DNA from: Candidatus Latescibacterota bacterium
GTDB taxonomy: Bacteria; Latescibacterota; UBA2968; UBA8231
Reading direction: 5' to 3'
Assembly: GCA_965215195.1 (NCBI GenBank)
Contig: CBDCDC010000001.1
Span: 960,001 to 1,024,000, forward strand
Length of the DNA stretch: 64,000 nt
Positions 26,107 through 64,000 of this stretch are shown here, in pieces. Made by a program: the position numbers and the translations under genes. The notes beneath the pieces were generated by a model that was not told the DNA's origin, did no database searches, and worked only from the letters and a program-made list of their open reading frames with translations. Numbering within the stretch: position 1 is the first letter of the stretch; each line of letters begins with the position of its first letter.

Positions 26107-26170
26107 GGTTTGCTCTTTCTGAGTTTAGTGGAATCCGCGAGGTCTTGCGCCGCAAAGCGCATAGACGAGC

Positions 26171-28323: not shown

Positions 28324-28356
28324 GGTGTTTCCTTTTTGCAATGGGTGCGGTGCTGG

Positions 28357-29559: not shown

Positions 29560-29569
29560 GCAAATGCTC

Positions 29570-32365
<2,796 letters not shown>

Positions 32366-32546
32366 AGATCCTCCGACTGCATGGGCTAGATTCTGCAACT
32401 GAATATAAGAAGCATAGACGACAGACAACGCAAGCGAACCGTGCGCTATGTTCGGCTTTCGCTGGGCATCCATAAGGGGTGCGTCGCTCAAGCCGAGTCT
32501 CTATGCGGCGGTCGCCTAGAGGCAATTTTATAGCCATTATGCACAG

Positions 32547-38478: not shown

Positions 38479-40704
38479 ATGAAACGCATCAGTGTATATG
38501 CTCTCTTAGTGTGCTTGCTCGGGGGCCGGCCGGCCGGTGCTGAAGTCGTGATCGTCGGCGGCGAAGGCGGTTTGGATTGGGCCAGCGGCGGCGGCGAGAT
38601 ACAAGCGACGGTCATCCGCAGCGCGACTTCAGTGGAAAATACCAACGCGCCGGGTGGGGTCATTGACTTTCGTGCCGAGGGCTTCAACAACTGGATCTTT
38701 CCGCAACGCGCCGATACCACACTCAATATCGCTATCGGTGCCAATTCCGAGGCTCGCGGCGGCTCGATCACCTCGCCCAATACCATCAACATTCGGCCGG
38801 AGTTGCCCAATATCATCGACGGCGATGGTGAGACAGCACTGGATTTGCGCGCCAGTGCCGGAGGCCAGAGCGCACGCGTGTTGGGCATTATCATCGATCT
38901 AGACTTAGGTGCCCGTTTCGGGGTTAATCGCTTCAAGTTTTTTCCCCGCAACGCCGACCCGGCGTTCCCCGCTCCGGCGTTCCCATACCAGAACGATTTT
39001 ATGCGCGGCTTCGAGATATTCATCAACGACGGTACGCCCGAGACTCAGCGCGAGGGGGTGCCGATCCGCGAGACCGTAGTGCTGGCCAACCAGAACGAAG
39101 ACCCAGTAGTTGACGCGCATATCCCGCCTCAGTACGTGCGGTTCGTGCGGCTCAAGTCGCTGACGGCGACGGGCTTTGACTTGGCCGAGTTCCAAGTTTT
39201 TGGTACCGGCTTTGTGCCTGAGGCCCTCTATATCTCCAATGTCTTTGACTTCGGCGACCTGTCGCTCTTTGGAACGCTGCGCTGGGTCGAACAGAAGGTG
39301 GGCGATAGCGGACGGTCTCGGGTCTTGATCCGCACCCGCACCGGCAACGACCCGCAGCCGGTCGAGTACAACAAAATTCGCCCAGGCGAGCAGATTTTCC
39401 GCTTGGGTGGTGGGGCTAGCCAGACGGGTACCACGGCCCGCGGCGACGAAGTGCCGTGGAAATTCGCCGCCGACATCGAGGATACCGAGCTACAGACTCT
39501 GGTTGAGACGGTGCTCGATAACGAGGATGTCGACCTGCGCGAGGCGCTCCAGATATTCAAGGATCTGCCGCTGGAGCAGCAGGAGCAGATCTCGCTGACA
39601 GCCACCGACTTCGGCCGGTTGCGCAATGAGGACAAGGGCAATATTCGCAACGATGTGACCAATTGGAGTGCTTGGTCGCCGCCGTATCCAGTCAGTGCGC
39701 TGGTTGACTTGGACGCCGACTTGGCCGACGCATTCCTGGGGGTGCCGGTGGTCTCGCCGAGTCCGCGGCGCTATTTCCAGTTCTCAATTGAGTTCTTTAG
39801 CGACGAATTTGAGTCGGCCACTGGCGTTGGGGGGATTTCCTTTGAGGTACTGCCTTCGCCTTTTGCCGAGGAGTTAATCGCCGAGATCGTCCCGCGCCAA
39901 GCGGCGCTGGGCGAAAAGGCAGACTTTACCCTCGCCGTGTTGAGCAAACTTCGCCCGGGCCTTGACCGCGGTTTCAATCGGCTACAGGTCGATACCCCGC
40001 TCAAGGTCGAAAACGTAGGACTGGTGGAGGTTCGGCACCCAGACGGCACGGCGGATGAGGCCGACTTTAGCGGCGCGGTGCTCGACCAATTGCCGCTCCA
40101 GCGCGGCGATTTTGCAGTGGTTGAGGCTGCCGACAACAGCTTCATCTTTGAGTTCCCAATGGTCGCCGCGGATGGTACCGAGGTGCGGGTAACCTTCGAC
40201 AACGCAGTGCTGCGCTTCGGCACGACCTTTACGACGCGGGCGTTCAATTCGGGCGAGGAAGTGCAGATTGCCCAAGATGTGGTATCGGGCAACGCCGCCG
40301 ATCTGGGGGAAGCCGATCCGGACTTGCAGCCTTTGGGTACTCCTTTCAGTGGGAACCTCTCGGTGGCCGTGCCGATCGTCGGCGACCTACTGGTCAACGT
40401 GCGTGCGGTCCCCGGGGTCTTTAGCCCCAACGGAGACGGCATAAACGACCAAGCTGCGGTTCAGTACGACATCACCAATATTGCTCGACCGACCGATGTA
40501 GAAATCGTGGTGCTCGACTTGGCGGGGCGGCCGGTGCGGAAGCTCTACCGCGGACTCGACAGCAGCGGGCGCCACGCGCATCCTTGGGACGGCAAAAACG
40601 ACGCCGGGGAGGCACTGCCTCCAGGCAATTATCTGTTCAGAGTGACGCTGGATGCTGGCACTGGCCAGGAACGCGGCATCGGCATGGTCAGCTTGGCTTA
40701 TTGA
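38479..40704 (+). CDS. Secreted discoidin-like/Ig-like protein with C-terminal FlgD-Ig (FSPNGDGIND) domain; divergent member of the array family
   Basis: Signal peptide; IIDGDGET..IDLDLG..LAEFQVFG; RTRTG..WSAWS..RRYFQ; FSPNGDGIND..WDGKND..GNYL; ends SLAY. Confidence 0.8.
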   Translation: MKRISVYALLVCLLGGRPAGAEVVIVGGEGGLDWASGGGEIQATVIRSATSVENTNAPGGVIDFRAEGFNNWIFPQRADTTLNIAIGANSEARGGSITSPNTINIRPELPNIIDGDGETALDLRASAGGQSARVLGIIIDLDLGARFGVNRFKFFPRNADPAFPAPAFPYQNDFMRGFEIFINDGTPETQREGVPIRETVVLANQNEDPVVDAHIPPQYVRFVRLKSLTATGFDLAEFQVFGTGFVPEALYISNVFDFGDLSLFGTLRWVEQKVGDSGRSRVLIRTRTGNDPQPVEYNKIRPGEQIFRLGGGASQTGTTARGDEVPWKFAADIEDTELQTLVETVLDNEDVDLREALQIFKDLPLEQQEQISLTATDFGRLRNEDKGNIRNDVTNWSAWSPPYPVSALVDLDADLADAFLGVPVVSPSPRRYFQFSIEFFSDEFESATGVGGISFEVLPSPFAEELIAEIVPRQAALGEKADFTLAVLSKLRPGLDRGFNRLQVDTPLKVENVGLVEVRHPDGTADEADFSGAVLDQLPLQRGDFAVVEAADNSFIFEFPMVAADGTEVRVTFDNAVLRFGTTFTTRAFNSGEEVQIAQDVVSGNAADLGEADPDLQPLGTPFSGNLSVAVPIVGDLLVNVRAVPGVFSPNGDGINDQAAVQYDITNIARPTDVEIVVLDLAGRPVRKLYRGLDSSGRHAHPWDGKNDAGEALPPGNYLFRVTLDAGTGQERGIGMVSLAY

Positions 40705-40736
40705 GGCACGGGCCTTTTTTGGAACGAGGGAGAGCA

Positions 40737-43541
40737 GTGTTGAAAGCGATGCGGAGTCTTGCAGTGATCGGTGCTTTACTAGGCCTAACCCCGGCGCATG
40801 GGCAGGAGGACTATCAGGCTCGGCTAGGGGTACAGCGGGGTGGTGCTGTCAGTTTTGAGCCTATCGGCCCGGGAGTATTATTTGGCGCACTCGACCCGAC
40901 CGTCAAAAAGTGGTACGTGCCGCAGGAGCTGTACGTGGACTACGGTTGGCGTCAATGGGAATACTCCAACTACGCCCGCACCCCGTATGAGCGCTACGTC
41001 AACACAACCCGCGAGGGTGCTTACTTCTACGATGTGTACGGCAACTTCACCACCCATGGTTGGCTGATCTACGACTGGCGTCAAGACCAGCCGTTGCCCT
41101 TGGGCAGTGGTATCTTCCAAGGTACGCGTTTTAATACTTGGTTCAATGCAGTGACCATCAGCGGTGATTCGCAAGGGCAGTACCACTACGCGATCACGGT
41201 CGGCGACCGGATCCGCACGACCTTGACGCCGATGACCTTTTCCAAGCCGGACTTCAATGGGGTGCAGGTGGATTTTGCCTCAGACAAGTACCAAGCGACG
41301 ATCCTCGCCTCGCGCATCAGCGAGCCGATCCGAGGCTCCTCGCAGGGCCTCGGCGGCAGCACCGAGCCGGTGACCCAGACCAACACGACCTCAATGTTTG
41401 GTGGGCGGGCGACGTTCCAGGTCGGCGACTTCATCACGCTGGGAGCCACGCTAGTTGATGCCCGCAACGCCAATACCACCCTCGATCTCTTCGCTGGCGA
41501 CCTGATCGCTGGCAGCCTCACGGCTGGGCAAAGCACGACCCCCCTAACGGCTATTGCGGTGATCCTCAGCGACGATTCGCCCGCAGACAACGAAGGGGGC
41601 GCAGCCCTGTTTAGCCACGACGTGCGGATCACCAGCCGCGACTTCGACACCGGCAAGGAGACGGTTTCTACCCTGCAGGAGGTGGTCCGCCCCGGTGCGC
41701 AGTGGCCGGTCCTCTTCGGGGGATTTCGGCGGCCGGGCTTTCTGGCCGCGGACGGTCCAGAGCGGATCATCGTCAACTACGACTTCAACGACCCGGCCTA
41801 CGTGGGCCCGGATCCGACGACCATTGTCGCGGTGGACTTCAACTACGTGCTGGCCAACGACTTCAAGGTCGAGATGTGGTCCGACCGCCAGACAGGTCAG
41901 CGGGCGGTCCCGGCGGCCCCGCTGACTAGCGAAGTAATCGACAATAGCCAGCCGGCCTTTGTGGTACTCCGGCGCGCCGAGGGCAATGTAAAAGACATCT
42001 CCAACTTGCAGCGCATCAAGTTCGACTATGGCTTGCCGACAGCCAACCTAATCGGCGGCTTTACTATTGAAGGTGCCGACGCATTTGGCTTCGACTTCTA
42101 CGGCGAGTGGGATCGCAACAAGCGCTATGCTCAGTACCCCAATGCCGCGCTCTTCAACGAGGGGAAGAAACACGCGATCTCCTCCGAGGCATCCGACGCT
42201 TGGCACTTCAATGTCTCGCGCAATGTGTTCCCCTACTTCCTCTACGGCGAGGCCTACGCCATCGATGAAGCCTATTCGACCACCACCTTTCTGGTCAATG
42301 CCAACGGCGACGTGCAATACGACAATAGTCAGCGACACTTCTACGAATTCGTCGATGACAATGACGACCAAGACCGTTTCCCTGACTGGGTTCGCTTCGG
42401 CACGATCAACGACCGGGCAATCTACCCAGGTTGGGACCAGAACAACGACTTCATCTCGGATTTCAACCAGAATGACAACGCCACCGTGGGCAATATCACC
42501 CCCGACTACGAGGAGCCGTTTCTGCGCTACAACGTCGATCGGCCGGAGTTTCTCTTCGGCATTGACCTCAACAACAACAATTGGATCGACCGCTTTGAGG
42601 ACGACGACTTGCCCGATTTCCCTTATAAACCCGATCGGCGGGGGTTTAATGTCTTCGGGGGGGTGCATTTGATGCCGGAGGCTCGGCTGATCGTCGGCCG
42701 CACGGACGAGGAGTCACAGACAACCGACGCGACTAACGTGACCAACTACGCGATGTTCGCCTTCGACAAGAACTATTCGGGCTTGGGACGCCTGCGGGTC
42801 TTCGATATGATCAAGCAGGCTAAGGACACCATACCTGATGCCCGCCGCGAACCTACGCCCTTTGAGGGTGCGCCGATCCAGCCAGTAGTCCGCGATATTC
42901 TTCCGGCGCAGGACACTTGGATCAACACTGCCTTCGTGCAGTTCGACTACAAGGGTATCGAGGGCTTGAACGTGGTCAACAAGCTCAAGTGGGAGACCTT
43001 CAGCCAGAACCAAGCCGAGACTCGCGATGCTAACGGCCGCCTGATGGAGGACGAAGCCAGCTTTTTCGGCTTGATCAACAAGGTTGACTACACCTACGGC
43101 TTGGGGCGTTTGGACTTGCAGCCGAGACTCAAAAGCGAACTTCTGCGCCAGACAGCCTTTCTGGTCGCAGAAGACGATCGCAAGGAATGGACGGCAACGG
43201 CGCAGTTAATAGCGACCTTGCCAGTACTCCGCCACACGATTGTTCAGGCCGGGCTGGAGCAGTTGTGGTTCAGTAACCAGAGCTTGGACGAGGATGCCCT
43301 TATTGCGGCTGGTCGCCAGCAGGAGACGGGCGACCTGAGTTCGACCAATGTCGCCGTACAGATCTCGACCACCTCGGATTATCTGGGCTACCGGCTGACG
43401 ACCCAGATTGGCCTGCGCTACGGCCGGATCTTCACCGAACAGGTGATCGAGGACAGCGACCGTCTGGGTACCTTTGTGATTGGCGATGAGAGCAGCAACG
43501 AGACGACCAGTTTTATTACGGTCTTCGCCGGGCTAGAGTGA
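40737..43541 (+). CDS. Large exported protein, probable outer-membrane beta-barrel with acidic Ca-binding-like loops (paralog 1)
   Basis: Signal peptide (PAHG-Q); DDNDDQD, DQNNDFISDFNQN, IDLNNN; alternating beta-strand pattern near the C-terminus, ending FITVFAGLE; start uncertain (40737/40749). Confidence 0.65.
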   Translation: MLKAMRSLAVIGALLGLTPAHGQEDYQARLGVQRGGAVSFEPIGPGVLFGALDPTVKKWYVPQELYVDYGWRQWEYSNYARTPYERYVNTTREGAYFYDVYGNFTTHGWLIYDWRQDQPLPLGSGIFQGTRFNTWFNAVTISGDSQGQYHYAITVGDRIRTTLTPMTFSKPDFNGVQVDFASDKYQATILASRISEPIRGSSQGLGGSTEPVTQTNTTSMFGGRATFQVGDFITLGATLVDARNANTTLDLFAGDLIAGSLTAGQSTTPLTAIAVILSDDSPADNEGGAALFSHDVRITSRDFDTGKETVSTLQEVVRPGAQWPVLFGGFRRPGFLAADGPERIIVNYDFNDPAYVGPDPTTIVAVDFNYVLANDFKVEMWSDRQTGQRAVPAAPLTSEVIDNSQPAFVVLRRAEGNVKDISNLQRIKFDYGLPTANLIGGFTIEGADAFGFDFYGEWDRNKRYAQYPNAALFNEGKKHAISSEASDAWHFNVSRNVFPYFLYGEAYAIDEAYSTTTFLVNANGDVQYDNSQRHFYEFVDDNDDQDRFPDWVRFGTINDRAIYPGWDQNNDFISDFNQNDNATVGNITPDYEEPFLRYNVDRPEFLFGIDLNNNNWIDRFEDDDLPDFPYKPDRRGFNVFGGVHLMPEARLIVGRTDEESQTTDATNVTNYAMFAFDKNYSGLGRLRVFDMIKQAKDTIPDARREPTPFEGAPIQPVVRDILPAQDTWINTAFVQFDYKGIEGLNVVNKLKWETFSQNQAETRDANGRLMEDEASFFGLINKVDYTYGLGRLDLQPRLKSELLRQTAFLVAEDDRKEWTATAQLIATLPVLRHTIVQAGLEQLWFSNQSLDEDALIAAGRQQETGDLSSTNVAVQISTTSDYLGYRLTTQIGLRYGRIFTEQVIEDSDRLGTFVIGDESSNETTSFITVFAGLE

Positions 43542-43560
43542 TATGAGACGAGGGCGAACG

Positions 43561-46518: not shown

Positions 46519-46531
46519 ATGAACCCACGGC

Positions 46532-48274
46532 ATGAGCGGTGTTTCTACGGTGCAAGGCTGGATCATCAATCGCGGCTACGATGCAATTTTTTTTATTGGT
46601 ACGCCGTTTTTGTCGCTAGTCGCGTTGCTCGTCGCCTCACAGTACTTCAGTTCGGCCAACATTGCTTGGTTCGTGTTGGCGTTCTTTGCGGTGGGCCACC
46701 ACTTACCCGGTTTCATGCGTGCCTACGGCGAAAGAGAGCTTTTCGACCGCCATAAGACAACCTTCCTCGTCTCTCCGCTAGTGGTAACCGCCTTCGTAGC
46801 TTGGAGTGTATTCAACGGCTATCTGGGCTTCTTCATCTTCTTAGCCCTATGGGATCTGTGGCATTTCTTCATGCAGCACTACGGCTTCATGAGGATCTAC
46901 GATGTCAAACGCCGAAAGCCCTCCCGCCTCAGCGCACGGCTGGACTGGTGGCTGACGGCCTTTTGGTTTGGCTATATCATCATCGACAGTCCCCATTACT
47001 TGATCAATTTCCTCGAGCGCTGCCACCGCTACGGCTTCGGCCTCTACACTTGGATTACACCGGAGTTTCTCTTAGAGCTTAGAGAGTGGGTTTTCTATCT
47101 GGCCCTCGGAATAGCCTTCCTCTACGTAGTAAACATGGTCGGAGAACGGGCGCGGGGCATACCAGTAGTTTGGCCGAAGTTGGCAATTTCGCTTACGACC
47201 TTCGCCACCGTTTATTATGCCTATATTGTCCTCGAAGACATCATTCTCGGCTACGCGATTACGGCCTTGGCTCACGATATTCAATACTTTGCCATCGTCT
47301 GGATTTACAACCACGGGGTGCTCAAGCGCTCGCAGGAGTTGGGCACGTCCTTCTTCCGCTTCTTGTTTTCCGACGGCCGCTTCCGCATCGTATTGTTCTA
47401 TGTGATTCTGATTTTGGCTTATGGCGGAATTGAGGCCCTAGCCCGAGCGACAGAGAACTATCTAATATACGATGTGGTTAAGGTCATCATCGCCGCTTCA
47501 GCTTTTTTGCATTACTACTACGACGGTTTTATGTGGAAAGTGCGAAAAAAAGAGATACGCCAGAACTTCGTCGCCGGGGATGAGGGCGAAGCGATCTCGG
47601 TGAGGCGCAAGGGGCTACGCGAAAAGCTACAGGAAAGCGTCGGGTGCTGGGTGGGGTTGCGCTATGCATTCGAGACAGGGCGACAAGTGCTCTACTTTGG
47701 CGTACCCATTCTCTTTTTGGCTTGGAGCGATGCCACCTATTCGGTGTCGGATCTGGAAGTAGGAGAATACATGGCGCGAATGACGCCGAACGTGGGCAAA
47801 ATCCACGACGCCTTGGGCAGGGCCTACGTACAGCAAGGCCAGTACGATCGCGCGATAGAAGAGCACCAAAAAGCGGTGGACTTGGAGCCTGAATTCGCAC
47901 CGGCCTATACCCATCTCGGCATCGCCTATTCGCTATCTGGCGACTCGGACCGAGCCATAGAACTCCACCTCAAGGCCATCGACTTAGAGCCAGAAATGGC
48001 CCAGGCCCATTACAATCTAGGCGTGGATTATTGGGGAATGGGCAAGCTAATCGAGGCGGAGCGGGCTTTCAAGCGGTCAATTGAAGAGGATAGCCAGTAT
48101 ATTCGCGCATATAAAGCCCTATCTCAAGTGTATAGAAAACAGGGAAATAGAGCAGAGTATGTCAGAATTTCCGCCCTAGTCCGCGACCTAGAAAAGGCGA
48201 CTCAACGCAGGGAGTTGAGCCGCAGCGCGATGCCGTGGGCTACGGGCACTGCACTAGCCGAGAACACCCGCTGA
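46532..48274 (+). CDS. Polytopic membrane protein with His motifs and C-terminal TPR repeats
   Basis: Many TM segments; GHH, WHFFMQHYG, AHDIQY, LHYYYDGFMW; about four TPRs (e.g. AYTHLGIAY, AHYNLG). Confidence 0.8.
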   Translation: MSGVSTVQGWIINRGYDAIFFIGTPFLSLVALLVASQYFSSANIAWFVLAFFAVGHHLPGFMRAYGERELFDRHKTTFLVSPLVVTAFVAWSVFNGYLGFFIFLALWDLWHFFMQHYGFMRIYDVKRRKPSRLSARLDWWLTAFWFGYIIIDSPHYLINFLERCHRYGFGLYTWITPEFLLELREWVFYLALGIAFLYVVNMVGERARGIPVVWPKLAISLTTFATVYYAYIVLEDIILGYAITALAHDIQYFAIVWIYNHGVLKRSQELGTSFFRFLFSDGRFRIVLFYVILILAYGGIEALARATENYLIYDVVKVIIAASAFLHYYYDGFMWKVRKKEIRQNFVAGDEGEAISVRRKGLREKLQESVGCWVGLRYAFETGRQVLYFGVPILFLAWSDATYSVSDLEVGEYMARMTPNVGKIHDALGRAYVQQGQYDRAIEEHQKAVDLEPEFAPAYTHLGIAYSLSGDSDRAIELHLKAIDLEPEMAQAHYNLGVDYWGMGKLIEAERAFKRSIEEDSQYIRAYKALSQVYRKQGNRAEYVRISALVRDLEKATQRRELSRSAMPWATGTALAENTR

Positions 48275-48282
48275 GAAAATCA

Positions 48283-48312
48283 TTGACAAACCAATCCTTT
48301 TTTTGTTATTTG
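48283..48312 (+). promoter_or_regulatory. Candidate sigma70-type promoter
   Basis: Perfect TTGACA at 48283 followed 18 bp later by a weak TATTTG preceded by TG; AT-rich gap. Confidence 0.4.
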
Positions 48313-48427
48313 GCAATTTATATAGAGAGTGTTCGACGCAAATACTCTCAAGTAAAGGCGGTTGCCAACGGTGGCAGGTGTGACACCGCTTTTTACGTTT
48401 AACCTTATTATAATGGAGGTCTCAACA

Positions 48428-49354
48428 ATGAGAAAATTGTTAGCTTTCGCCGCCACGGCGTTGATGCTGACTAGCACGGCTAGCCTCGCCCACTTTCCAG
48501 AAGGCCAGATCTTCGGGGCGTGGCAGTGGCCGTCGACCCATCTTCCTAACTTGGATGGCGACATCTCCGAGTGGAATGTGCTACCGGATGAGCTGTGGAT
48601 CGACATCTTCCAGACGGAAGTCGCCGAGGGCGATATCGGTCGCGAGATCGACACTGCCAATCTCAACTTCCGCGTCGCTGTTGGTTGGAACGACGAACTG
48701 GACCGCATCTATTATGTCTATGACCGCTTCGACGACATTTGGGATCGCGATGCCGGCGGCTTTGGCTGCTGCGGCCAAGATGACAGCATCGAGATTTTCC
48801 TCGACGCCGACCATAGCGCCGACCGCTTCGCCTTTTGGGATGGCGACTACGAGGACCCGGAGGAACGCGCCCGCAACAACGGCCGCACCAACCAGACGGG
48901 GCACTACCGCTGGCCGGCTCTCGAGCCTTTTGGCTTCTACTGGTTCTGGCTGAGTAGCTCAACTTGGCACGACAAAGAGCCTTATTCGTGTTGCCCGACC
49001 TCCTTCAATCTCGATGGGGCCCACGGCACCGAGGCCAACTTCCAAGCCGAGTGGTACACGGTTGGTTGGGATGATTTTGATCACAACAGCCCCGAAAACA
49101 GCATCCTCCACGATTTTGTCGAGGGAGAGATCATCGGCGTTGGTATCCAAGTCGTCGATAACGACAACGGCCCGAGTTCGGATGATCCTCGAACCGCCAA
49201 GTGGGCGCTGGGCGGTCAGCCCTGCATCAATGGCGACGGTGCCTGCGGCAGCGACTACATTTTGCTGCCGGTCCAAACCGATCTACTGCCGGATCAGATG
49301 TCGGCTATCGAGGGCAATAGCTGGGGCCACATCAAGGCTTCGTTCGGCCAATAG
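48428..49354 (+). CDS. Secreted CBM9/DOMON-like protein with SWGxIK C-terminal motif
   Basis: GGAGG RBS, signal peptide (ASLA-H); PNLDGDISEW, GWN..RIY, DSIEIFLDAD, IGVGIQVVDND; tail SAIEGNSWGHIKASFGQ. Confidence 0.72.
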   Translation: MRKLLAFAATALMLTSTASLAHFPEGQIFGAWQWPSTHLPNLDGDISEWNVLPDELWIDIFQTEVAEGDIGREIDTANLNFRVAVGWNDELDRIYYVYDRFDDIWDRDAGGFGCCGQDDSIEIFLDADHSADRFAFWDGDYEDPEERARNNGRTNQTGHYRWPALEPFGFYWFWLSSSTWHDKEPYSCCPTSFNLDGAHGTEANFQAEWYTVGWDDFDHNSPENSILHDFVEGEIIGVGIQVVDNDNGPSSDDPRTAKWALGGQPCINGDGACGSDYILLPVQTDLLPDQMSAIEGNSWGHIKASFGQ

Positions 49355-49382
49355 GCGCGAACAACTAGCAGTTTTACTAATT

Positions 49383-49419
49383 AAGGAGGGAGGGTAGAGT
49401 TGCTCTACCCTCCCTCCTT
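49383..49419 (+). terminator. Perfect 17-bp hairpin (terminator or mRNA-stabilising stem)
   Basis: aaggagggagggtagag-ttg-ctctaccctccctcctt, followed by gtatttat. Confidence 0.75.
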
Positions 49420-49467
49420 GTATTTATGTATGATATGTACATTCTACAAACCTTGGGGATAGCGAGC

Positions 49468-51393: not shown

Positions 51394-51395
51394 GG

Positions 51396-53330
51396 ATGAG
51401 CCAGATGGGGTACATAATTGCATTGTGGACGTTGGGGTCGCTAGTGGTCGGCGCAGGCGATCTTGATGCTCTAACGATCTACCGGATCGGGGGTGCCGAC
51501 CTGCCCGCGCCGGAGCTAGCGTCGGTTGAAGGGGTGGAATTCGTGCAGATTGATTGGGCCGCTATCGACGAGGATTTGCACGGTAGTATCAACTTGCTAG
51601 AAGTGTCCGTTGGCCACATCGCGCCGCGTCAGCTTGACCCCACGGTCAATCTGACGCCGCTTTTGCCGCAGGCTGATTTTCTCGGCGATATACTCTATCT
51701 GACTTGGATCGGCTGGGGAGGGTTTAACGACGACGACGAGTTTATCTGGGACGAGGATCCCAATACGGCCTATCTGGGAGATGGTCATTTCGCCTCGCAT
51801 GGGCCGAATACCAAAAACCTGATCTTCGATTTTGGCGGGCTGTTTTTTATCGACCGGGTCAAGTTCTACCCGCGGCCCAGCCATCTGACCGACCGCTTCG
51901 TCGAGCGCTTCGTTATCGGCACTAGCGATGGCGACCCGCTCAAGGATCCCGACCGGGAACTTCGGGCCGGGGCGAGAGGCGATTATGTGGCCTTCGATGT
52001 GATTTACAATGTCCGCGACAATACGCAGCCAGTCATTGAGTTGAAGATGCCCGATGAGCCAATCCGCAAGTTACTCTTTCGGGCACCGGAGAATACGCGG
52101 GGAATTTGGGAATTGGCCGAGTTGGAACTCTATGGTTCGGGTTTTGCGCCCTTCTCCAATTATACCAGCAGCATTATCGACTTGGGCAAGCCGGTGGCTT
52201 TGGGCGATTTGAGCTGGTCGGGCGAAGCCGACACTGGTGCCCAGATCAGCTTAGTGATGCGTAGCGGCGATGTGCCAGACCCGAGCATCTATTGGCGCTT
52301 CACCTTCCGCGGCGACGAGCAGAGCCGCTTTGACGCCAAGGGCCAGCCGCTTACGGCCCGAGCCTACGACAAGCTCAATAAAGGCGAAAAGGCCGGGATT
52401 ACGCCTGATACCCAAAACTGGGAGCCGTGGAGTCAGGCCTACGCCTTTGCGGCTGGTTCAGGGGCGATGCAAGCCGACAAACCGCGTCGCTACGTACAGC
52501 TCAAGGCCGATTTTACCGCGCAGAAGGAGGCTGGCGGACGGCTGGATTTTTTGCAGTTTAGCGTCTCGGACCCGCCAGTGGCGACGCAAGTGTTGGCCGA
52601 AATTTCGCCACCGAGTGCCCGCGCCGGGGACGTCACCCAGTTCACCTATACGATTATGCCGCAATTCGAGCGCGAAGATTTGGGATTTGACACCATCGAG
52701 ATTGAGACGCCGGTCGAAGTAGCCAGCATTGATGGTGTGCGAATCGCCGGCCAGGAAGCCAGCTTTGAGGTCGTGTTCTTGGACGCCACCGGCTTTGTCC
52801 TCAAAATCCCACGGATGGACGTGCAGCAAACCAACGAACGGATTGAGGTGGACTTCGCCGTGGAGGTGTTCAAGTTTGGAACGGTATTCGCTGGCCGGAT
52901 CTCCGATAGCGAAAAGCCCTTTGAGGTTCGTCAGGCATTAACCCCGGGCGATGCCGATCCGCTGACCGATAGCAACACCCTGAGCGTGGGATTAGTCGAG
53001 GTGAGAGAGGAAGCAGTCAATGCGCTCAAGCTGTCTTCGCCGGTGTTTACGCCCAACGGCGATGGAATCAACGACGCCCTTGAGATCGAATACGAGTTGT
53101 TGAACCTTTTTGGTGCGGTGCCAGTGATGCTGGACCTATACGACTTATCAGGGCGGTGGATCGGGGTGGTGGATCGGGGCATGGCGGCGAGCGGACGGGT
53201 CTCGCTGCGTTGGGACGGGAGGTTAGCGGACGGATCAGTGGCTGCGCCGGGATTGTACCTGCTGCAGCTCGAAGTAGAAAGCGACCAAGGCAAGGAAGCA
53301 CGCCAGCGCGTCGTCGTTTTGGCCTACTGA
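51396..53330 (+). CDS. Array protein A2
   Basis: LTIYRIGG, IFDFGG, WELAELELYG, FTPNGDGIND, ends VLAY; start uncertain (51390/51396/51405). Confidence 0.85.
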   Translation: MSQMGYIIALWTLGSLVVGAGDLDALTIYRIGGADLPAPELASVEGVEFVQIDWAAIDEDLHGSINLLEVSVGHIAPRQLDPTVNLTPLLPQADFLGDILYLTWIGWGGFNDDDEFIWDEDPNTAYLGDGHFASHGPNTKNLIFDFGGLFFIDRVKFYPRPSHLTDRFVERFVIGTSDGDPLKDPDRELRAGARGDYVAFDVIYNVRDNTQPVIELKMPDEPIRKLLFRAPENTRGIWELAELELYGSGFAPFSNYTSSIIDLGKPVALGDLSWSGEADTGAQISLVMRSGDVPDPSIYWRFTFRGDEQSRFDAKGQPLTARAYDKLNKGEKAGITPDTQNWEPWSQAYAFAAGSGAMQADKPRRYVQLKADFTAQKEAGGRLDFLQFSVSDPPVATQVLAEISPPSARAGDVTQFTYTIMPQFEREDLGFDTIEIETPVEVASIDGVRIAGQEASFEVVFLDATGFVLKIPRMDVQQTNERIEVDFAVEVFKFGTVFAGRISDSEKPFEVRQALTPGDADPLTDSNTLSVGLVEVREEAVNALKLSSPVFTPNGDGINDALEIEYELLNLFGAVPVMLDLYDLSGRWIGVVDRGMAASGRVSLRWDGRLADGSVAAPGLYLLQLEVESDQGKEARQRVVVLAY

Positions 53331-53333
53331 AAG

Positions 53334-55934
53334 ATGGGTATGCATCGTATCAGCATCGTATTAGTGCTTGGTTGGGCAGCGGGCGTCTCGGCCCAAGCTG
53401 GGCATCAGGTGACGACGACTCAGGTAGTAGTCAACAGCCGCGCTCACTGGCAGAACTGGAGCTTTCCACCGGGAGTGCTGGAACTAGGTGCCGATGGCTC
53501 GGTGCGGCCTCAAAACGTCCGCCGCGACATCAATGCGGTGCAAGATATCGTTGAGCACTTGCGCTTACGTCCTCCGAAAAGAATCAAAAAAGACCCCGAA
53601 GACATCGTGCCACTTGACGCGGTACAGGGCGGGGGCACGGCAAATATTGTCGCGGTGCCCAAGATTTTTGATGGGGATTTGACGACCTACTGGGAACCGG
53701 CTGCGGCGAGCGAAGAGTCCGATATCGCTTCGCAGTGGTGGTTCGTCGTTGACTTGGGCCGGTTGGTGATCGCTAAGAAGATCGTGCTCAAATTCGTCGC
53801 TGAGGATATGGGGGACCCGTTCTTGCAGTTCGATGTGCTGGCCTCGCAGGGCAACAAGCCCAAGGGCAACCAGCGTTCTCCGCTACCGGAGTTTAGCCCG
53901 TTGTTGCGGACCTTGCGACCCAACAAGGACCAGCGCGTCTTCGAGATTGACATGGACCAGTTGGGAGATGATTTCGTCGGTACCGGCCTCCGATTCGTGC
54001 AGATCGTGGTAACTGACAGCGGTTTTGACCGCGGCCGGGAGCTGAGCCAAGCCGAGTACGAGGCCCTACCGGCAGGAGAGCAGGGGGCGATTGACTACTT
54101 TAAAAAGCTCACTGGAGGCCGCGAGACCTTGGTGGAACAGAGGGTTTTCGAGCGTCTCGACGCTGACCGCCAAGGCACGATCCGTTACTACCGCAAGGAG
54201 CGTCCGCGGCTGGCGGAGCTGGAGATTCTAACCGAAGGCGACGAGATCCTTTCCGGGATGCTGGAACGCGGCGGTTTCGGTACGGCGACGCAGACAGCCT
54301 CAATTAGCAACATGATTGACGGCGAGATCGAAAGTAGGGTCCAATTTATCACCCGCTTCGGCCGGGGATCGCTCAACTCCCCGGAGGGCGGGGTTTTGTT
54401 CGATTTAGGGGCCTTTTACTGGATCGATGCTTTCCGCATCGCCTACGCCGGCGGGGCCTTTCAAGCCTACCATCTGGATTTTTCCGATGGCAGCCTCGAA
54501 GCAGACGGCAGCCTCAAATGGTCGGTCGCGGTCAATCGCACGGAGACCAGCCACTACGGCAGCAGTCAGGGGCTAGGTTTCGGCCTCTATGAGGGCAACG
54601 ACTTTGAGCGGATTAAAGCGCGATTCTTCCACCTCGTCTGGAAGCAGTTCGAGTCGGGCAGCGGCTTTGGCGGCGGCTCCGGCCAGCCGGCCGAGATTCA
54701 ACTCTACGGGCGGGGTTTTCAGCCAGAAGTGACCCTGACGTCCGACTTGGTGCGCTTGGGCGGTAGTCGCAACCTGTCCTCCATTGAGTGGGACGCCGAT
54801 ACTCCGCCGGGGACCAGTGTAATTTTGCAGACCCGCACCGGCAACGAGCTCGACGAAGTGCTGCGCTACTTCAAAAAGGACGGCACCGAAGTTACCGAGG
54901 CTGAGTACAACAAGCTGCTATCGATTTTTCGCGGCGATACCATCGGCGAAGAAGTCGCCGGTGGGGACTGGAGCGGCTGGAGCCAGCCCTACGAAGACGC
55001 CAGCACCAGCCCGATTACCTCACCCAGCCCGCGCGAATTTCTCGAGATCCGTGCGGGCCTGCTATCGGACGATCCAGAGGTTAGTGCAACGCTGCGCTCA
55101 ATCCGGCTCAACTTCACCAATCCGGTCGCGCAAAGGCTTGTCGGCGAAGTCGCCCCTTTCGAGGTCGGGAGCCTCGGCAAGGAGCAGCGTTTTTCCTTTT
55201 ACGTGCGCCCGGACTTCGCTCGTAGCGATCCCGGTTTCGACCAGTTGCTTTTGATCGCTCCCGCCGACATGAATCTGCGCTTCGAGGGATTTTATGGTGG
55301 CACAGAGACCGAAATGGCGGCCGGGGAGACGACCGGGACGGCCCTCGGTGCTGATGTCGTGCCTACTTCAGGCGACAGCTTGCAGATAGCGTTCTCTCCA
55401 CTGAGGCCTGATTCGGAGGTCGAGGTGGTGCGGTTGGACTTTTCGACAGCCTTGTTTTCGACCGGGGCGGTGGTGCAGGCGTCGTTGCAGCACAGCGGGT
55501 TGGAGGCCGGTGGTTGGCAGCGGGTGGATCCGGGCGAGGCGGTTGCGGCGGTTATCAGCAATACGACGACCTTGGTGGGAAAAGTCAAGTATGGGCCTTT
55601 AGTGCAAGCGGTGTCGGTGGTACCAGTGGCGTTTTCGCCCAATGGCGACGGAATCAATGACGAGGTATCGTTCCGCTTTGCGGTGGTCAAGGTGAGTGAT
55701 GACAGTCCGGTGGAGGTACTCATCTACGATCTACAAGGGCGGTTGGTGCGGCGACTGGCCGAGCAGCGGGGGTTGAGCACGGGGTCGTATGGGATCGCTT
55801 GGGACGGGCGCGACGGACAGGGCGAGGTAGCTCCACCAGGGATCTATCTAGCACGGTTGCGCGTGGACACCGATACCGAGGGATCCCAGATGGGCAATGC
55901 CGAAATTTTTCGCACCGTCGCCGTTACCTACTAG
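53334..55934 (+). CDS. Array protein B1: two discoidin-like domains + Ig-like + FlgD-Ig
   Basis: QVVVNSRAHWQNW, FDGDLTTYWEP, WWFVVDLGR, PRLAELE, FDLGAFYWID, PAEIQLYG, FSPNGDGIND, ends AVTY. Confidence 0.85.
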   Translation: MGMHRISIVLVLGWAAGVSAQAGHQVTTTQVVVNSRAHWQNWSFPPGVLELGADGSVRPQNVRRDINAVQDIVEHLRLRPPKRIKKDPEDIVPLDAVQGGGTANIVAVPKIFDGDLTTYWEPAAASEESDIASQWWFVVDLGRLVIAKKIVLKFVAEDMGDPFLQFDVLASQGNKPKGNQRSPLPEFSPLLRTLRPNKDQRVFEIDMDQLGDDFVGTGLRFVQIVVTDSGFDRGRELSQAEYEALPAGEQGAIDYFKKLTGGRETLVEQRVFERLDADRQGTIRYYRKERPRLAELEILTEGDEILSGMLERGGFGTATQTASISNMIDGEIESRVQFITRFGRGSLNSPEGGVLFDLGAFYWIDAFRIAYAGGAFQAYHLDFSDGSLEADGSLKWSVAVNRTETSHYGSSQGLGFGLYEGNDFERIKARFFHLVWKQFESGSGFGGGSGQPAEIQLYGRGFQPEVTLTSDLVRLGGSRNLSSIEWDADTPPGTSVILQTRTGNELDEVLRYFKKDGTEVTEAEYNKLLSIFRGDTIGEEVAGGDWSGWSQPYEDASTSPITSPSPREFLEIRAGLLSDDPEVSATLRSIRLNFTNPVAQRLVGEVAPFEVGSLGKEQRFSFYVRPDFARSDPGFDQLLLIAPADMNLRFEGFYGGTETEMAAGETTGTALGADVVPTSGDSLQIAFSPLRPDSEVEVVRLDFSTALFSTGAVVQASLQHSGLEAGGWQRVDPGEAVAAVISNTTTLVGKVKYGPLVQAVSVVPVAFSPNGDGINDEVSFRFAVVKVSDDSPVEVLIYDLQGRLVRRLAEQRGLSTGSYGIAWDGRDGQGEVAPPGIYLARLRVDTDTEGSQMGNAEIFRTVAVTY

Positions 55935-55944
55935 AGGAAACATA

Positions 55945-58557
55945 ATGATGAATCGATCTTTGGCCCTGGCCGTGCTGATCGCTGGCACTGCGTTAGCCCA
56001 ATCGGGATACCAGATAACCGCGAATCAAGTGGTGGTTGACAGTCGCGCTCACTGGCAAAACTGGAATTTTCCGCCAGGGGTGCTGGAACTGGGAAGTACC
56101 GGGACGGTGCAACCCCGGAGTCTGCGGCGCGATATTAACGCTGTCGGCGACATTGTCGCCAACTTGCGTGCGCGTCCACCTGAGGGTCTAAAGAAAACGC
56201 CAGAAGCCATCGTCCTCGCCGACGCCATACTAGGTGGTGCCCGCTCCAATGTCGCTGGCGTGGAAAACCTTTTCGACGGTGATATAACTACCTATTGGGA
56301 ACCTGACCCACCAACCGAGGCGCTGGATCTGAGCACTCAGTGGTGGTTTATCGTCGATTTGGGGCGCTTGGTGATGGCCAAGAAGATCGTGCTCAAGTTC
56401 GTCGCCGAAGAGTTGGGCGATCCCTTCTTACAATTCGACCTCTTGGCCTCGCAGGGCAATATTCCTAAAGGCAACCAGCGTTCACCCACCCCCGAGTTTA
56501 CCACCATCCTCCGCACGTTAAAACCCAACAAGGAACAGCGGGTTTTCGAACTGGTCACCAACTCAGAGCCAACCTTTGCCGGCACCGGGATGCGCTTCTT
56601 GCAGATCATAATTACCGGCAGTGACTTCGACCGCGGGCGGGAAGTGATCTTGGAACAATACGAGGCTCTGCCGACGAGCGACCAGGGGGCCATTGAGTTT
56701 TACAAAAAGCAGGCCGATGGCAGCGAGACCGTGGTGTCGCCGGAAATTTACGAGTTGCTAACAGCCGAGCAGCAAGGACCGATCCGCTACTTCCAGCGCG
56801 AGCGCCCGCGATTGGCCGAATTGGAAGTCTGGGCAGAGGGCGACGAGATTCTCACCGGAGCCTTGGCCCGCGGTGGGTTTGGCACTGCGACGCAAACCGC
56901 GGCGATCAACAACCTGATCGATGGCCAAATCGAGAGCAAGGTCCAGTTTCTCTATTCTTTCGGTCGCGGCTCGTTCAAGGATCCGGAAGGCATCGTCTTT
57001 TTTGACTTGGGGGCGTTTTACTGGATCGATGCTTTTCGCATGGCCTACGGTGGCTCAACGTTTCGGGATTACCGGCTCGATTTTTCCGACGGCAGCCTCG
57101 AAGCCGACGGCAGCCTTAAGTGGACTACGGCGGGGACGCGCCAGACCTCCTCCCCTACAGCGGTGGGGTCGAAGTGGGAAAGCGAGACTAATCTCAGATT
57201 CGGAGCCTACGAGGGTAACGATTTTGAGCGGATAAAAGCGCGCTTCTTTCGCTTGGTGTGGGAGCAGGTCGAAAGCGCCACGGCTCGCGGTGGGGCTACC
57301 GGCCAGCCGGCGGAGATCCAGCTTTACGGTCGGGGGTATCACCCGGAGGTGGTGCTGATCTCCAATTTGATCCGCTTGGGGGCCAGCCGCAATCTGCTGT
57401 CGATTGCTTGGGACGCTGATACGCCGCCGGGGACCAGCGTAGTTTTGCAGACCCGCACCGGCAACGAACTTGATGAGGTACTGCGCTACTTCAAAAAGGA
57501 CGGTACAGAAGTCACCGAGGCCGAGTACAACAAATTGTTGTCGATTTTTCGCGGTGACACTGTCGGCGAGGAGGTCGCCGGTGGGGACTGGAGTGACTGG
57601 AGTGCGCCCTACGAAGTGGCTGCGGGCAGTCCGATTAGTTCGCCATCGCCGCGGGCGTACTTGGAGGTGCGGGCGGTGTTGCGGTCGGACATGCCCGATT
57701 ACAGCGCGACGCTGCGATCGCTGCGATTGGATTTCACCAATCCGGTCGCGCAGGGGCTATTGGGCGAAGTGACCCCCTTTGCGGTGGAGCAGCTGGGGCA
57801 GCCGCAGCGATTTTCGCTCTACGTGCGCCCAGAGTTTGCCACTGGCGATCCGGGGTTTGATCAGTTGTTAGTAGTAGCCCCGTCGGATATGCGCTTGGCG
57901 TTTGAAGGGGTATATGGCGGTCCGGCGGCGGCACTGGCCACCGACGTAGGAGCCGATTGGGCCTTGGACGGAGCGGAAGTCGTCCCCACCGCCGGCGATA
58001 GTTTGCAAGTGGCGTTTTCGGAGATAGGCCCATCCTCGGAGGTGGAGGTGGTGCGGCTGGATTTTTCGACGGCCTTGTTTTCGACCGGAGCAGTATTGCA
58101 GGCATCGTTGCAGCACAGTGTTGAGGGAGAGGGGGGCTGGCAGCGGGTGGATCCGGGCGAGGCAGTAGAAGCCATTGCCAGCAACACGACGACGCTGGTG
58201 GGGGCGGTGCAGGAGGGTGCCTTGGTGCAGGCGGTGAAAGTAGAGCCGCGAGTGGTTACGCCCAATGGCGACGGGGTCAACGACGAGGTGGGGTTTCGCT
58301 TCCAGGTGGTCAAGGTGGACGGAGCCAGTCCGGTGGAGGTGTTGATCTACGATGTGCGGGGGCGGCGAATGCGGCGCTTAGTCGAGCATCGTCCGGCGAG
58401 CACGGGGATCTACGAGATGGAGTGGGACGGTCGGGATAAGCAGGGGACGGTGGTGGTACCGGGAGTCTATCTGGTACGGGTGCGAGTCGATACCGATATC
58501 GAGGGGGCCCACATTGCACACGCCGAAATCCTACGTACTATCGCCGTTGCCTACTAG
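55945..58557 (+). CDS. Array protein B2
   Basis: Same motifs as B1; VTPNGDGVND; ends AVAY; start refined to ATG 55945 after AGAGGA. Confidence 0.85.
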   Translation: MMNRSLALAVLIAGTALAQSGYQITANQVVVDSRAHWQNWNFPPGVLELGSTGTVQPRSLRRDINAVGDIVANLRARPPEGLKKTPEAIVLADAILGGARSNVAGVENLFDGDITTYWEPDPPTEALDLSTQWWFIVDLGRLVMAKKIVLKFVAEELGDPFLQFDLLASQGNIPKGNQRSPTPEFTTILRTLKPNKEQRVFELVTNSEPTFAGTGMRFLQIIITGSDFDRGREVILEQYEALPTSDQGAIEFYKKQADGSETVVSPEIYELLTAEQQGPIRYFQRERPRLAELEVWAEGDEILTGALARGGFGTATQTAAINNLIDGQIESKVQFLYSFGRGSFKDPEGIVFFDLGAFYWIDAFRMAYGGSTFRDYRLDFSDGSLEADGSLKWTTAGTRQTSSPTAVGSKWESETNLRFGAYEGNDFERIKARFFRLVWEQVESATARGGATGQPAEIQLYGRGYHPEVVLISNLIRLGASRNLLSIAWDADTPPGTSVVLQTRTGNELDEVLRYFKKDGTEVTEAEYNKLLSIFRGDTVGEEVAGGDWSDWSAPYEVAAGSPISSPSPRAYLEVRAVLRSDMPDYSATLRSLRLDFTNPVAQGLLGEVTPFAVEQLGQPQRFSLYVRPEFATGDPGFDQLLVVAPSDMRLAFEGVYGGPAAALATDVGADWALDGAEVVPTAGDSLQVAFSEIGPSSEVEVVRLDFSTALFSTGAVLQASLQHSVEGEGGWQRVDPGEAVEAIASNTTTLVGAVQEGALVQAVKVEPRVVTPNGDGVNDEVGFRFQVVKVDGASPVEVLIYDVRGRRMRRLVEHRPASTGIYEMEWDGRDKQGTVVVPGVYLVRVRVDTDIEGAHIAHAEILRTIAVAY

Positions 58558-58584
58558 CTCTTTTTCTCCAGCGGAGGGAGTACT

Positions 58585-60546: not shown

Positions 60547-60556
60547 GGAAGATGCG

Positions 60557-62488: not shown

Positions 62489-62501
62489 AGGGCGAGATAC
62501 G

Positions 62502-64000
62502 ATGAAGACCATTTGGACTTTTGCCTGCGCCTTGCTGCTGGGCACGATGTGCGCCGAGGCTCAGGGAGTGGGTCATCGCGTCACCGCTGACCAAGTCGTA
62601 GTCAATAGTCAGCAGCACTGGCAGAACTGGTCCTTCGGGTCGGGCACTCTAGACATCGGACCCAGCGGCGAAGTCCGGCCACGGCGGCTGCACAAGAATA
62701 TCAATGCCGTGGAGAATGCCCTCGAATTCCTGCGCCTGAATCCTCCCAATTACATTAAAAAAGATGCGGCAGATATCGAACTCAGCGACGGAATCCGCGC
62801 CGGCTCCAATGCTCCGGGCGTACTGGCCCTCTTTGACGGCGATATGGAGACCTATTGGGAACCCGACGTACTCAACCGAGGTATCGACTTGGCGACGCAG
62901 TGGTGGTTTATCGTCGATCTGGGCCGCTTCGTCATGGCCCGCAAGATCGTGCTCAAATTTGTCGATGAAGCACTGGGCGACCCCTTCCTGCAGTTTGATG
63001 TACTAGTCTCGGAAGGCCGCCAGCCCAAAGGCAACAGCCGTTCGCAAACGCCTGAATTTAGCCGGGTGGCGCGCACCTTGGTGCCCAACAAGCAACAGCG
63101 GCTCTTTGAGATCGAACTGGAATCCGCAGAAGAGTTTGCGGGCATGGGCCTGCGCTTCGTTCAGGTGATCGTGACCGGCAGCGACTTTGCCCAAGGTCGG
63201 GAGATCAGCCGCGACGAGTACGAGGCCCTGCCAGAAGCAGACCGGGGAGCGATTCTCTACCACAAGCGGCTGCCAAACGGCAATGAGGCCGCGGTCAAAA
63301 AGGAGGTCTATGACCAACTCGAAGCATCGCGGCAAGGCCCCGTGCGCTATTTCGTGCGCGAAAGGCCGCGCCTAGCCGAACTGGAAGTGTGGGCCGAGGG
63401 CGACGAAATCCTGATAAATACGGTTGAGCGCGGGGGCGTAGTCACCTCGACCCAGTCCTTGGCGCTGGCGAGCCTGTTCGATGGCGATGTACTCAGTTTC
63501 AGCGAGGTGATTTTTATCTTCTCTCCTGGGCAATTAAAGGAACCAGAGGGCGAGGTGTTTTTCGATATGGGGGCCTCGTTCTGGATCGACGCTTTCCGCA
63601 TGGCCTTGGGAGCGCGCCAGCGAAATTTCGAGGGTTATAGACTGGATTTCTCCAATGGTGAGCGCGAGGCAGACGGTAGCCTCAAGTGGACTCCCGCGGC
63701 CGCGGTGAGTGGTGCGGAAGTCCTCGGTCGCAGCGTGATTGGCACCCGAAGCGTAATGGGCAACAACTTTAGCCCCCTAAGGGCACGTTTTTTTCGCTTC
63801 GTGTGGAATCAGATTGTGCGCGGGGTAGGCAATAGCGGTGCGGCCATTCTGGCCGATCCGTCCGAGTTGCAACTCTACGGGGAAGGGTTTATGTCGGAAG
63901 TAAGCCTGACTTCGGATCTGGTGCGGCTGGGCGGCAGACGCAACTTGGTCTCAATCGAATGGGACGCGGATGTGCCGCCGGGCACGAGTGTGCTGGTGCA
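62502..64000 (+). CDS. Array protein B3 (3' partial, runs off the window; absent from the ORF track)
   Basis: Read by hand: MKTIWTFACALLLG..QVVVNSQQHWQNWSF, FDGDMETYWEP, WWFIVDLGR, PRLAELEVWAEGDE, PSELQLYG. Confidence 0.85.
   Translation, partial: MKTIWTFACALLLGTMCAEAQGVGHRVTADQVVVNSQQHWQNWSFGSGTLDIGPSGEVRPRRLHKNINAVENALEFLRLNPPNYIKKDAADIELSDGIRAGSNAPGVLALFDGDMETYWEPDVLNRGIDLATQWWFIVDLGRFVMARKIVLKFVDEALGDPFLQFDVLVSEGRQPKGNSRSQTPEFSRVARTLVPNKQQRLFEIELESAEEFAGMGLRFVQVIVTGSDFAQGREISRDEYEALPEADRGAILYHKRLPNGNEAAVKKEVYDQLEASRQGPVRYFVRERPRLAELEVWAEGDEILINTVERGGVVTSTQSLALASLFDGDVLSFSEVIFIFSPGQLKEPEGEVFFDMGASFWIDAFRMALGARQRNFEGYRLDFSNGEREADGSLKWTPAAAVSGAEVLGRSVIGTRSVMGNNFSPLRARFFRFVWNQIVRGVGNSGAAILADPSELQLYGEGFMSEVSLTSDLVRLGGRRNLVSIEWDADVPPGTSVLV

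Follow-up and report, generated by a model that had tools for sequence, protein, structure and literature searches.

What do two very large barrel-like proteins do beside an array of secreted proteins with lectin-like folds? The question is raised by a 64 000-nt stretch of DNA (the window; positions 960001–1024000 of contig C1 of a Candidatus Latescibacterota genome, here G000, of 6.13 Mb and 95% completeness), in which 12 genes between 38479 and 64000 lie on the same (+) strand and the gene of a peptidyl-prolyl isomerase (PPIase) lipoprotein is divergent to them. An initial annotation had listed this gene run, its neighbours and the divergent foldase, all of which are present as described, and had proposed a barrel-plus-cargo system for export and display or for ligand capture. 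We found the locus to be just one instance of a cassette that recurs across the genome and joins large barrels (family B) to secreted proteins with CBM32-like and immunoglobulin (Ig) domains and a tail ending in tyrosine (family C). With a probability of roughly one half, we read this cassette as a motor-powered capture-and-import system that would act like SusC/SusD and be built from unrelated parts.

The genome carries 53 B genes, 129 C genes (counted as core plus tail) and 41 paralogs of a CBM9-like secreted protein (family M), which together occupy ∼475 kb or 7.7% of its DNA. The B genes are grouped into 35 regions, the window locus being one of them. Of these, 34 contain C, 28 PPIase and 27 M; a DUF6785 membrane protein is encoded in 19 and a small lipoprotein family in 15. 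C frequently stands directly upstream of B, and a frequent gene order is M-lipoprotein-C-C-C-B, while the order of the window was found again in 24 of 65 full-length related loci, which are kin and not independent. The co-location of B and C is not due to chance, because 49 of the 53 B genes have a C gene no further than 5 kb away, compared with 15% of the other open reading frames (ORFs) of at least 500 aa, and because only 3 of 89 genes with an ordinary type-A-like FlgD tail lie that close to B. Seen from the other side, 87 of the 129 C genes are within 5 kb of B against 7.8% of background ORFs, a background that includes shadow ORFs. In the window the cassette and its divergent neighbours are laid out as follows:

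33398–35023, minus strand: FG-GAP/ASPIC-UnbV lipoprotein, of a family frequent beside the cassette
36552–38237, minus strand: SurA/PrsA-type PPIase lipoprotein, 561 aa, divergent (Rotamase_2, E 2.5e-21)
38479–40704, plus strand: cA, secreted protein of family C, 741 aa, 25–29% identical to c1–c7 (FlgD_ig 1e-9, CHU_C 2.6e-7)
40749–43541 (alternative start 40740), plus strand: B1, outer-membrane β-barrel by AlphaFold2 model, 930 aa
43543–46518, plus strand: B2, second barrel paralog, 985–991 aa, 39% identical to B1
46532–48274, plus strand: multi-pass membrane protein with His motifs and C-terminal tetratricopeptide repeats (TPRs), 580 aa, matching TPR families only
48428–49354, plus strand: M, CBM9-like secreted protein, 308 aa, with a C-terminal [ST]WG.[ILV]K tail (1i82, E 4e-6)
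49382–49420, plus strand: 18-pair stem-loop between M and c1, a terminator or a processing/stability site
49468–51393 (ORF from 49426), plus strand: c1, short C paralog with one CBM32-like domain
51396–53330, plus strand: c2, short C paralog, the modelled representative
53334–55934, plus strand: c3, long C paralog, 866 aa, with two discoidin-like motif sets
55945–58557, plus strand: c4, long C paralog, 870 aa
58585–60546, plus strand: c5, short C paralog, 653 aa
60557–62488, plus strand: c6, short C paralog, 643 aa
62502–64000 (window edge; true end 65105 in window numbering), plus strand: c7, long C paralog, 867 aa

An AlphaFold2 model of B1, calculated from an alignment of 86 sequences out of 150 first aligned, reached a predicted local distance difference test score (pLDDT) of 88.9 and a predicted template modelling score (pTM) of 0.85, and bears out the earlier impression of a large outer-membrane barrel. 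In the stretch from residue 117 to 910 DSSP assigns 23 long strands, which mostly alternate in hydrophobicity, and for this reason the model points to a barrel of about 24 strands. The pattern of short turns and long loops suggests that a β-domain insert (mature residues 241–408) and an Asp/Asn-rich stretch (490–610) face outward; the latter is the most conserved region of the protein with 31% D+N, and its DxDxD-type motifs may bind calcium. The N-terminal ∼110 residues precede the barrel, and residues 26–80 are conserved as highly as any region; loose alignments put this segment at plug or lumen positions of FhuA and CirA, which makes it at best a tentative plug candidate. Three fold searches found no close barrel for B1 among the solved structures listed (TM to query in Foldseek never above 0.26; highest VIA Z 14.1, at a root-mean-square deviation (rmsd) of 12): the best matches, MtrB, SlpA, LptD, FimD, SprA and Omp85, are all outer-membrane barrels and none of them is close, and chains of TonB-dependent transporters (TBDTs) align loosely (Z 9–11.6, rmsd 4–13). 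Pfam and NCBIfam yielded no family for B1 and B2 at E 0.05, and a B profile gave two chance matches among PDB sequences (E 0.08–0.16). In the ESM Atlas whole B1 matched unnamed clusters (0.99; labelled Latescibacterota or Gemmatimonadota) and, as a weak lead, DUF6029 (0.89), and its domain 235–410 had no match there. At E 0.001 the family, with lengths of 870–1050 aa, has 721 representatives, many of them fragments, in a set of 1.84 billion; the nearest relatives of B1 (87–95% identity) come from records labelled Candidatus Latescibacterota and some labelled Gemmatimonadota.

The C proteins follow the modular plan that had been proposed from their motifs. All eight in the window carry the D[GE]D..T, DLG-type, R[ST]G and [TS]PNGDG.ND motifs and end in -AY or -TY, the WS.WS pattern is matched in seven, and the proteins are 24–69% identical across aligned parts; the distal seven genes are indeed only 2, 3, 10, 27, 10 and 13 bp apart. 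Matches to the F5/8 family are weak and limited to three of the eight, and the CBM32 fold was confirmed by profile and model. The model of c2 (pLDDT 94.8, pTM 0.86) is nearly all-β and has no catalytic domain: residues 56–227 form a CBM32/F5-8 fold (4a42; Z 13.8, rmsd 2.3, 123 aligned), residues 376–512 an Ig domain (Z 10.8), and residues 514–620 a seven-strand sandwich like the tail of PorU (Z 12.3, rmsd 2.3, 98 aligned). Foldseek with whole c2 returned multi-domain matches at TM 0.12–0.18 only. The RSG/WS.WS/RY.Q domain is split into residues 1–55 and 225–369, with matches to three chains of virus tails (Z 11.6, 10.7 and 10.4); cA is assembled likewise from a CBM32-like part, a hub-like split domain, an Ig domain and an FlgD/CHU_C-type tail with final Tyr. 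One matched chain, of 512 residues, is by its length probably the tail hub gp59 of Pa223. In the accessible part of its description the apical domain of gp59 consists of residues 2–46 plus 403–512 around an inserted propeller (bioRxiv 10.1101/2025.06.11.659172). C thus shares with podophage tail hubs (Pa223 gp59; P22 gp10 class) a two-segment β-sandwich around an insert (Z 11.6, rmsd 2.9, 130 aligned), but its insert is CBM32 rather than a propeller, the identity is 14%, and no phage genes are nearby.

The tail most probably places C among the substrates of type IX secretion systems (T9SSs) rather than among flagellar proteins. FlgD_ig and/or CHU_C match all seven complete C proteins of the window, partly below cut-off, with Pfam CHU_C above cut-off in two; an identity as flagellar FlgD was rejected, as the matches are far below cut-off and confined to the tail. 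TIGR04131, the model of C-terminal domains (CTDs) of type B with a cut-off of 35 bits, gave any match in four of the seven and 25.4 bits at best. Genome-wide, the final Tyr is present in 122 of 129 C proteins (one of the seven others is a fusion) and [TS]PN.DG in 105 of 129, and the further 89 proteins with an ordinary type-A-like tail, whose last residue is mostly basic or otherwise polar, avoid B. The initial annotation had recognised no T9SS core in the window; the genome encodes T9SS components elsewhere, with an SprA-like gene (C1:252999–258908, 1969 aa), seven PorV-family matches above cut-off and a PorU-like neighbour. Because of these genes, C is most likely ordinary T9SS cargo and not cargo of B: it combines a signal peptide (called by eye) with an Ig-like C-terminal sorting domain in a genome with SprA and PorV, and would be secreted through SprA. 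Genome searches for GldM, GldN and PorP/SprF gave no match, but control genomes were equally silent; the Latescibacterota T9SS may lack the known motor GldLM.

A link between B and a motor comes from loci elsewhere in the genome. At four divergent G000 loci two or three B genes are adjacent or close together, and two of these core loci (C1:164–184 kb and C2:1886–1902 kb) additionally encode a TPR protein of ∼1080 residues, ExbB, two ExbD and lipoproteins. The same plan of B, TPR protein, ExbB and two ExbD was found in the related genomes G015, G006 and G060. The 53 B genes of G000 face four ExbB matches; TonB-dependent transporters, too, operate as many barrels per few motors. One of the two ExbB/ExbD operons contains a DUF4159 protein, a type with one membrane helix and a basic linker, a layout that we take to be TonB-like, and the core lipoproteins carry an AgmX/PglI domain above cut-off in two of four tested, with sub-cut-off matches to GltG/GltJ. 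Directly behind C in three core operons (G015, G006 and one G000 locus) stands a PorV/PorP-like gene, recognised below cut-off; these 286–307-aa genes behind core C match the PorP/SprF model weakly (E 1e-3). In the accessible parts of two articles, type B cargo followed by its shuttle gene is a described order (PMC12618676; PMC9143113).

Whether B and C belong together beyond one genome was examined in 151 evenly drawn Latescibacterota genomes, the search being confined to that phylum. B is present in 96 of them and in 11 of 14 sampled families, including 64 of 64 genomes of the own family and none of 50 in three families of the same class (f2–f4). The predicted co-occurrence was observed: of the 96 genomes with B, 95 have a C core. 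M (95/151) has nearly the pattern of B. SprA is much more widespread (143/151) and is found in 49 of the 50 f2–f4 genomes despite the absence of B. Weak C-core matches occur in 25 B-negative genomes; those of f2 were rejected as true C, being in three genomes checked another protein without the Tyr tail. This f2 protein (L150:9474–11525, L151, L152) is a single one of ∼690 aa with part of the C core and a different tail, in what is presumably a riboflavin biosynthesis operon.

B has also expanded in the near absence of C. A FastTree tree with midpoint root was built from 93 B sequences, with 52 of the 53 own copies (a 555-aa fragment was left out) and relatives from selected windows. It contains one clade of 40 own copies and the four of G002 (support 1.0), a second of 24 of 26 G060 copies together with a core-operon type, and a third with all six G003 copies, which suggests that B expanded at least three times, in separate clades; B1-type and B2-type genes are two clades, co-duplicated as pairs. 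In G060, 3 C genes compare with 65 B matches, 40 of which are close to full length, and in G003 1 C compares with 15 B. No C was found in 18 non-core G060 windows or in 5 G003 windows; the G003 copies of B sit with DUF4159 and often also M and DUF6785. Since B expanded almost without C in these genomes, B is not simply the export barrel of C. Of the barrel-plus-cargo proposal, the ligand-capture version is therefore favoured and B as main barrel for export or display of C disfavoured. About nine B genes of G060 are in pieces and many of its B loci lie beside insertion sequences, which suggests recent turnover of the family there.

Further families accompany the cassette. The M profile matches the CBM9 structure 1i82, in agreement with the CBM9-like gene proposed earlier, with PF06452 in 8 of 31 members. 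Most M paralogs (31 of 41) carry the [ST]WG.[ILV]K tail, which appears to be a sorting or anchoring signal in its own right. This tail occurs on 54 G000 proteins, the 31 M and 23 unrelated, mostly secreted-looking ones; of the latter, just two are encoded within 5 kb of B. PPIase paralogs are within 12 kb of a B gene in 30 of 37 cases against a background of 11.8%, and the PPIase is a probable dedicated foldase. The FG-GAP/ASPIC-UnbV lipoproteins are strongly expanded (52 in the genome, 28 within 12 kb of B), and 21 of 44 DUF6785 membrane proteins are as close, again against 11.8%. The membrane domain of the 46532–48274 protein has three paralogs in the genome and its gene is present in 24 of the 65 full-length related loci, so that we regard it as an accessory specific to this locus type; its His-motif part (46532–47600) has no Pfam match and presumably resembles membrane di-iron enzymes. 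At C2:753584–757801 a C protein without its last strand reads in frame into a membrane/TPR protein resembling this product; we rejected this as a sign of periplasmic C, as it is a single case with the last C strand missing, probably a frameshift or deletion. A family of ∼635-aa proteins with type-A tail stands beside core B genes (C1:184390, C2:2530819, C2:3778985), is also near B in four windows of G060 (L156, L160, L167, L170), and is a possible B partner.

The import reading has its computed basis in the barrel fold, the domain folds, the cassette linkage, the motor linkage of the core operons and the C-free expansion of B, and from these we would picture gating, energy coupling, secretion route, B–C contact, ligand type and transport direction as follows. 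B would be a large, probably gated outer-membrane transporter, its paralogs serving different solutes, and ExbB/ExbD/ExbD motors from few shared core operons would energise it by proton-motive force. The linker would be other than canonical TonB; candidates are the DUF4159 protein with its single helix and, on the core lipoprotein, the AgmX/PglI-type domain. C and M, which carry CBM32, CBM9 and Ig folds only, would be non-catalytic binding proteins, probably for carbohydrate-type ligands; C would be exported by the SprA T9SS via its Tyr-ending tail and a PorV-like shuttle and then retained on the cell surface, where the extracellular domain of B would probably hold it, with the PPIase aiding folding. 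In this lineage each barrel would have acquired its own T9SS-secreted binding proteins and foldase.

Several observations weigh against this picture. CBM32 and CBM9 folds do not establish sugar binding, the three canonical TonB_C matches of the genome lie outside the core operons, and conventional importers are present, as PF00593 finds 16 TonB-dependent barrel matches. DUF6785 proteins do not follow B: they occur in 47 of 61 phylum genomes, in 16 of 16 of f2 (without B) and in 0 of 13 of f10 (with B), and were rejected as an obligatory part. Genes near B in G060, which would favour import, include GH78, BNR-repeat, sulfatase, Gfo/Idh/MocA, PhyH and enolase-type ones, with many glycoside hydrolases, sulfatases and oxidoreductases (61 of 90 neighbours scanned; mobile, regulatory and already labelled genes left out), at 2.9 such ORFs per 20 kb against 1.55 in 20 control windows (p 0.007), but this enrichment is modest and biased, the enzyme families having been picked from the near-B set. 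In G000 catabolic families are depleted within 12 kb of B (21/502, 4.2%, versus 332/3741, 8.9%), which speaks against a plain polysaccharide utilization locus (PUL) in this genome. Finally, C in 34 of 35 B regions here and ∼18 C for four B in G002 look like display.

The best-surviving alternative is that B does not import at all and serves as a cognate surface anchor, comparable to PorP/SprF but giant, to which lectin adhesins C secreted by the T9SS and perhaps WG-tailed M are attached, the cassette diversifying adhesion to host or particle glycans. The near-constant presence of C, often directly upstream of B, the catabolic depletion just given, the tracking of B by M across genomes and the distinct class of C tails, set against type-A-like tails that avoid B, all speak for it. 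The order of cargo and then barrel is also the one reported for type B cargo and PorP/SprF in the accessible part of one source (PMC12618676). As in the SprB–SprF and PG1035–PorP pairs, cargo with an FTPNGDG.ND tail is encoded just upstream of a barrel in a genome with SprA and PorV; unlike there, B exceeds PorP/SprF (∼300 residues; TIGR03519/PF11751) about threefold in size without matching these models, the C tail is PorU-like, Tyr-ending and below the TIGR04131 cut-off, there are two to three cargo proteins per barrel, and relatives have barrels without cargo. B outnumbers C ∼15-fold in G060 and G003, mostly as single genes without an adjacent secreted partner, the core operons already have real PorV/PorP-like genes behind C, and a passive anchor needs neither an ExbB/ExbD motor nor a 900-residue barrel. 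An anchor fits G000 well and G060 and G003 badly, and we consider it possible but doubtful.

A machine of the Agl-Glt kind appears unlikely. The Agl-Glt machinery is made up of an ExbB/TolQ-like protein, two ExbD/TolR-like proteins, a TPR scaffold and several outer-membrane barrels. Here, ExbB/ExbD/ExbD with TPR scaffold and three barrels would move or tension C for gliding or attachment, or would energise T9SS release without GldLM. The core operons, which combine a single ExbB and a pair of ExbD with a large TPR protein and as many as three B, share this make-up with Myxococcus Agl-Glt/Nfs, as they do the AgmX/PglI (TonB_C-like) domain and the GltG/GltJ similarity in their lipoproteins, and the absence of GldM and GldN matches, in searches whose controls were silent too, may point the same way. 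However, B1 and B2 match none of the Glt models (GltA/B/H barrels, GltG, GltD/E, CglB), and massive paralog expansion and T9SS-type lectin cargo set the cassette apart; 40–50 dispersed B paralogs beside metabolic genes would stay unexplained, the SprA-positive, B-free f2–f4 genomes argue that B is no general T9SS energiser, and one ExbB plus two ExbD is a frequent set in the Ton systems of Bacteroidota. Very improbable, finally, is an usher-like pore on which C polymerises into rings or short fibres via its phage-hub-like domain: FimD/PapC are among the fold neighbours of B1 (Z 13.6, rmsd 7.3, 288 aligned), the Pa223 tail hub that the C split domain resembles is hexameric, and a foldase is encoded beside B and C, but the usher match is no better than that of other barrels, no usher family is matched, the C tail is of T9SS type, and B occurs without C.

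Returning to import, the closest known systems in action are SusC/SusD and the TBDTs, which likewise have dozens of large barrel paralogs per genome with few ExbB/ExbD motors; SusC/SusD also shares non-catalytic surface binding proteins and inner-membrane proteins nearby and, in G060 and G003, neighbouring enzymes. TBDTs are characterised by 22 strands, a plug and a TonB box, as given in the accessible part of PMC11658791. B differs in having no TonB-receptor or plug family match and apparently more than 22 strands; its partners are signal-peptide proteins with T9SS-like tails instead of SusD lipoproteins, the core operons lack canonical TonB, and enzymes are not enriched near B in G000. The one partial match to the SusD family PF07980 (C2:2053 kb) is outside the B regions. 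As had been supposed, family models assign neither B nor C to SusC/SusD or PorP/SprF.

In the accessible part of one account, transport in Latescibacteria is given as porins and TonB-dependent import only (PMC4454575). Our literature search, mainly of open papers, found no published account of the cassette, although supplementary gene tables could list its proteins, and no paper on Latescibacterota type IX secretion. The working principle is probably known and the hardware not, so that the novelty would lie at system level. Nearly all active uptake across the Gram-negative outer membrane is ascribed to TonB-dependent transporters; the barrel family described here, which is unclassified, is tied to an ExbB/ExbD motor and, with its partners, makes up as much as ∼8% of a genome. 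Import, if true, would solve the PUL problem in a second way and would be key to understanding how these uncultured bacteria feed; display, if true, would add a new T9SS anchoring route and a new Tyr-ending sorting class. Only tentatively do we go further and suggest an energised importer class independent of TBDTs as the main uptake route of many Latescibacterota: ExbB/ExbD would drive a ∼24-strand barrel through a linker other than TonB, and lectins secreted by the T9SS would cap the barrel, assembling on it via a domain shared with phage hubs. Either way there are testable parts: a T9SS outside Bacteroidota possibly without GldLM, the new tail class, the WG-tail signal and hundreds of putative binding modules.

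Some minor features remain to be listed. Terminator-like sites in the region equal the shuffle mean in number, and only the stem-loop at 49382–49420 is long; a promoter scan of the region gave four sites against 5.3 expected. Far from B, a second repeated array (C2:2144–2193, 2366–2395 and 2770–2781 kb) consists of ∼730-aa FlgD-tail proteins ending in -KKTTKLP or -RKMVKLE, interleaved with DUF4159 single-helix proteins. Upstream of the cassette, the minus-strand genes at 24793–32491 presumably encode xylose isomerase, a short-chain dehydrogenase/reductase and a 2-oxoglutarate dehydrogenase set (E1, E2, E3), and between the foldase and FG-GAP genes (35020–36552) lies the gene of a pentapeptide-repeat protein (PF13576) with a C-terminal membrane region.

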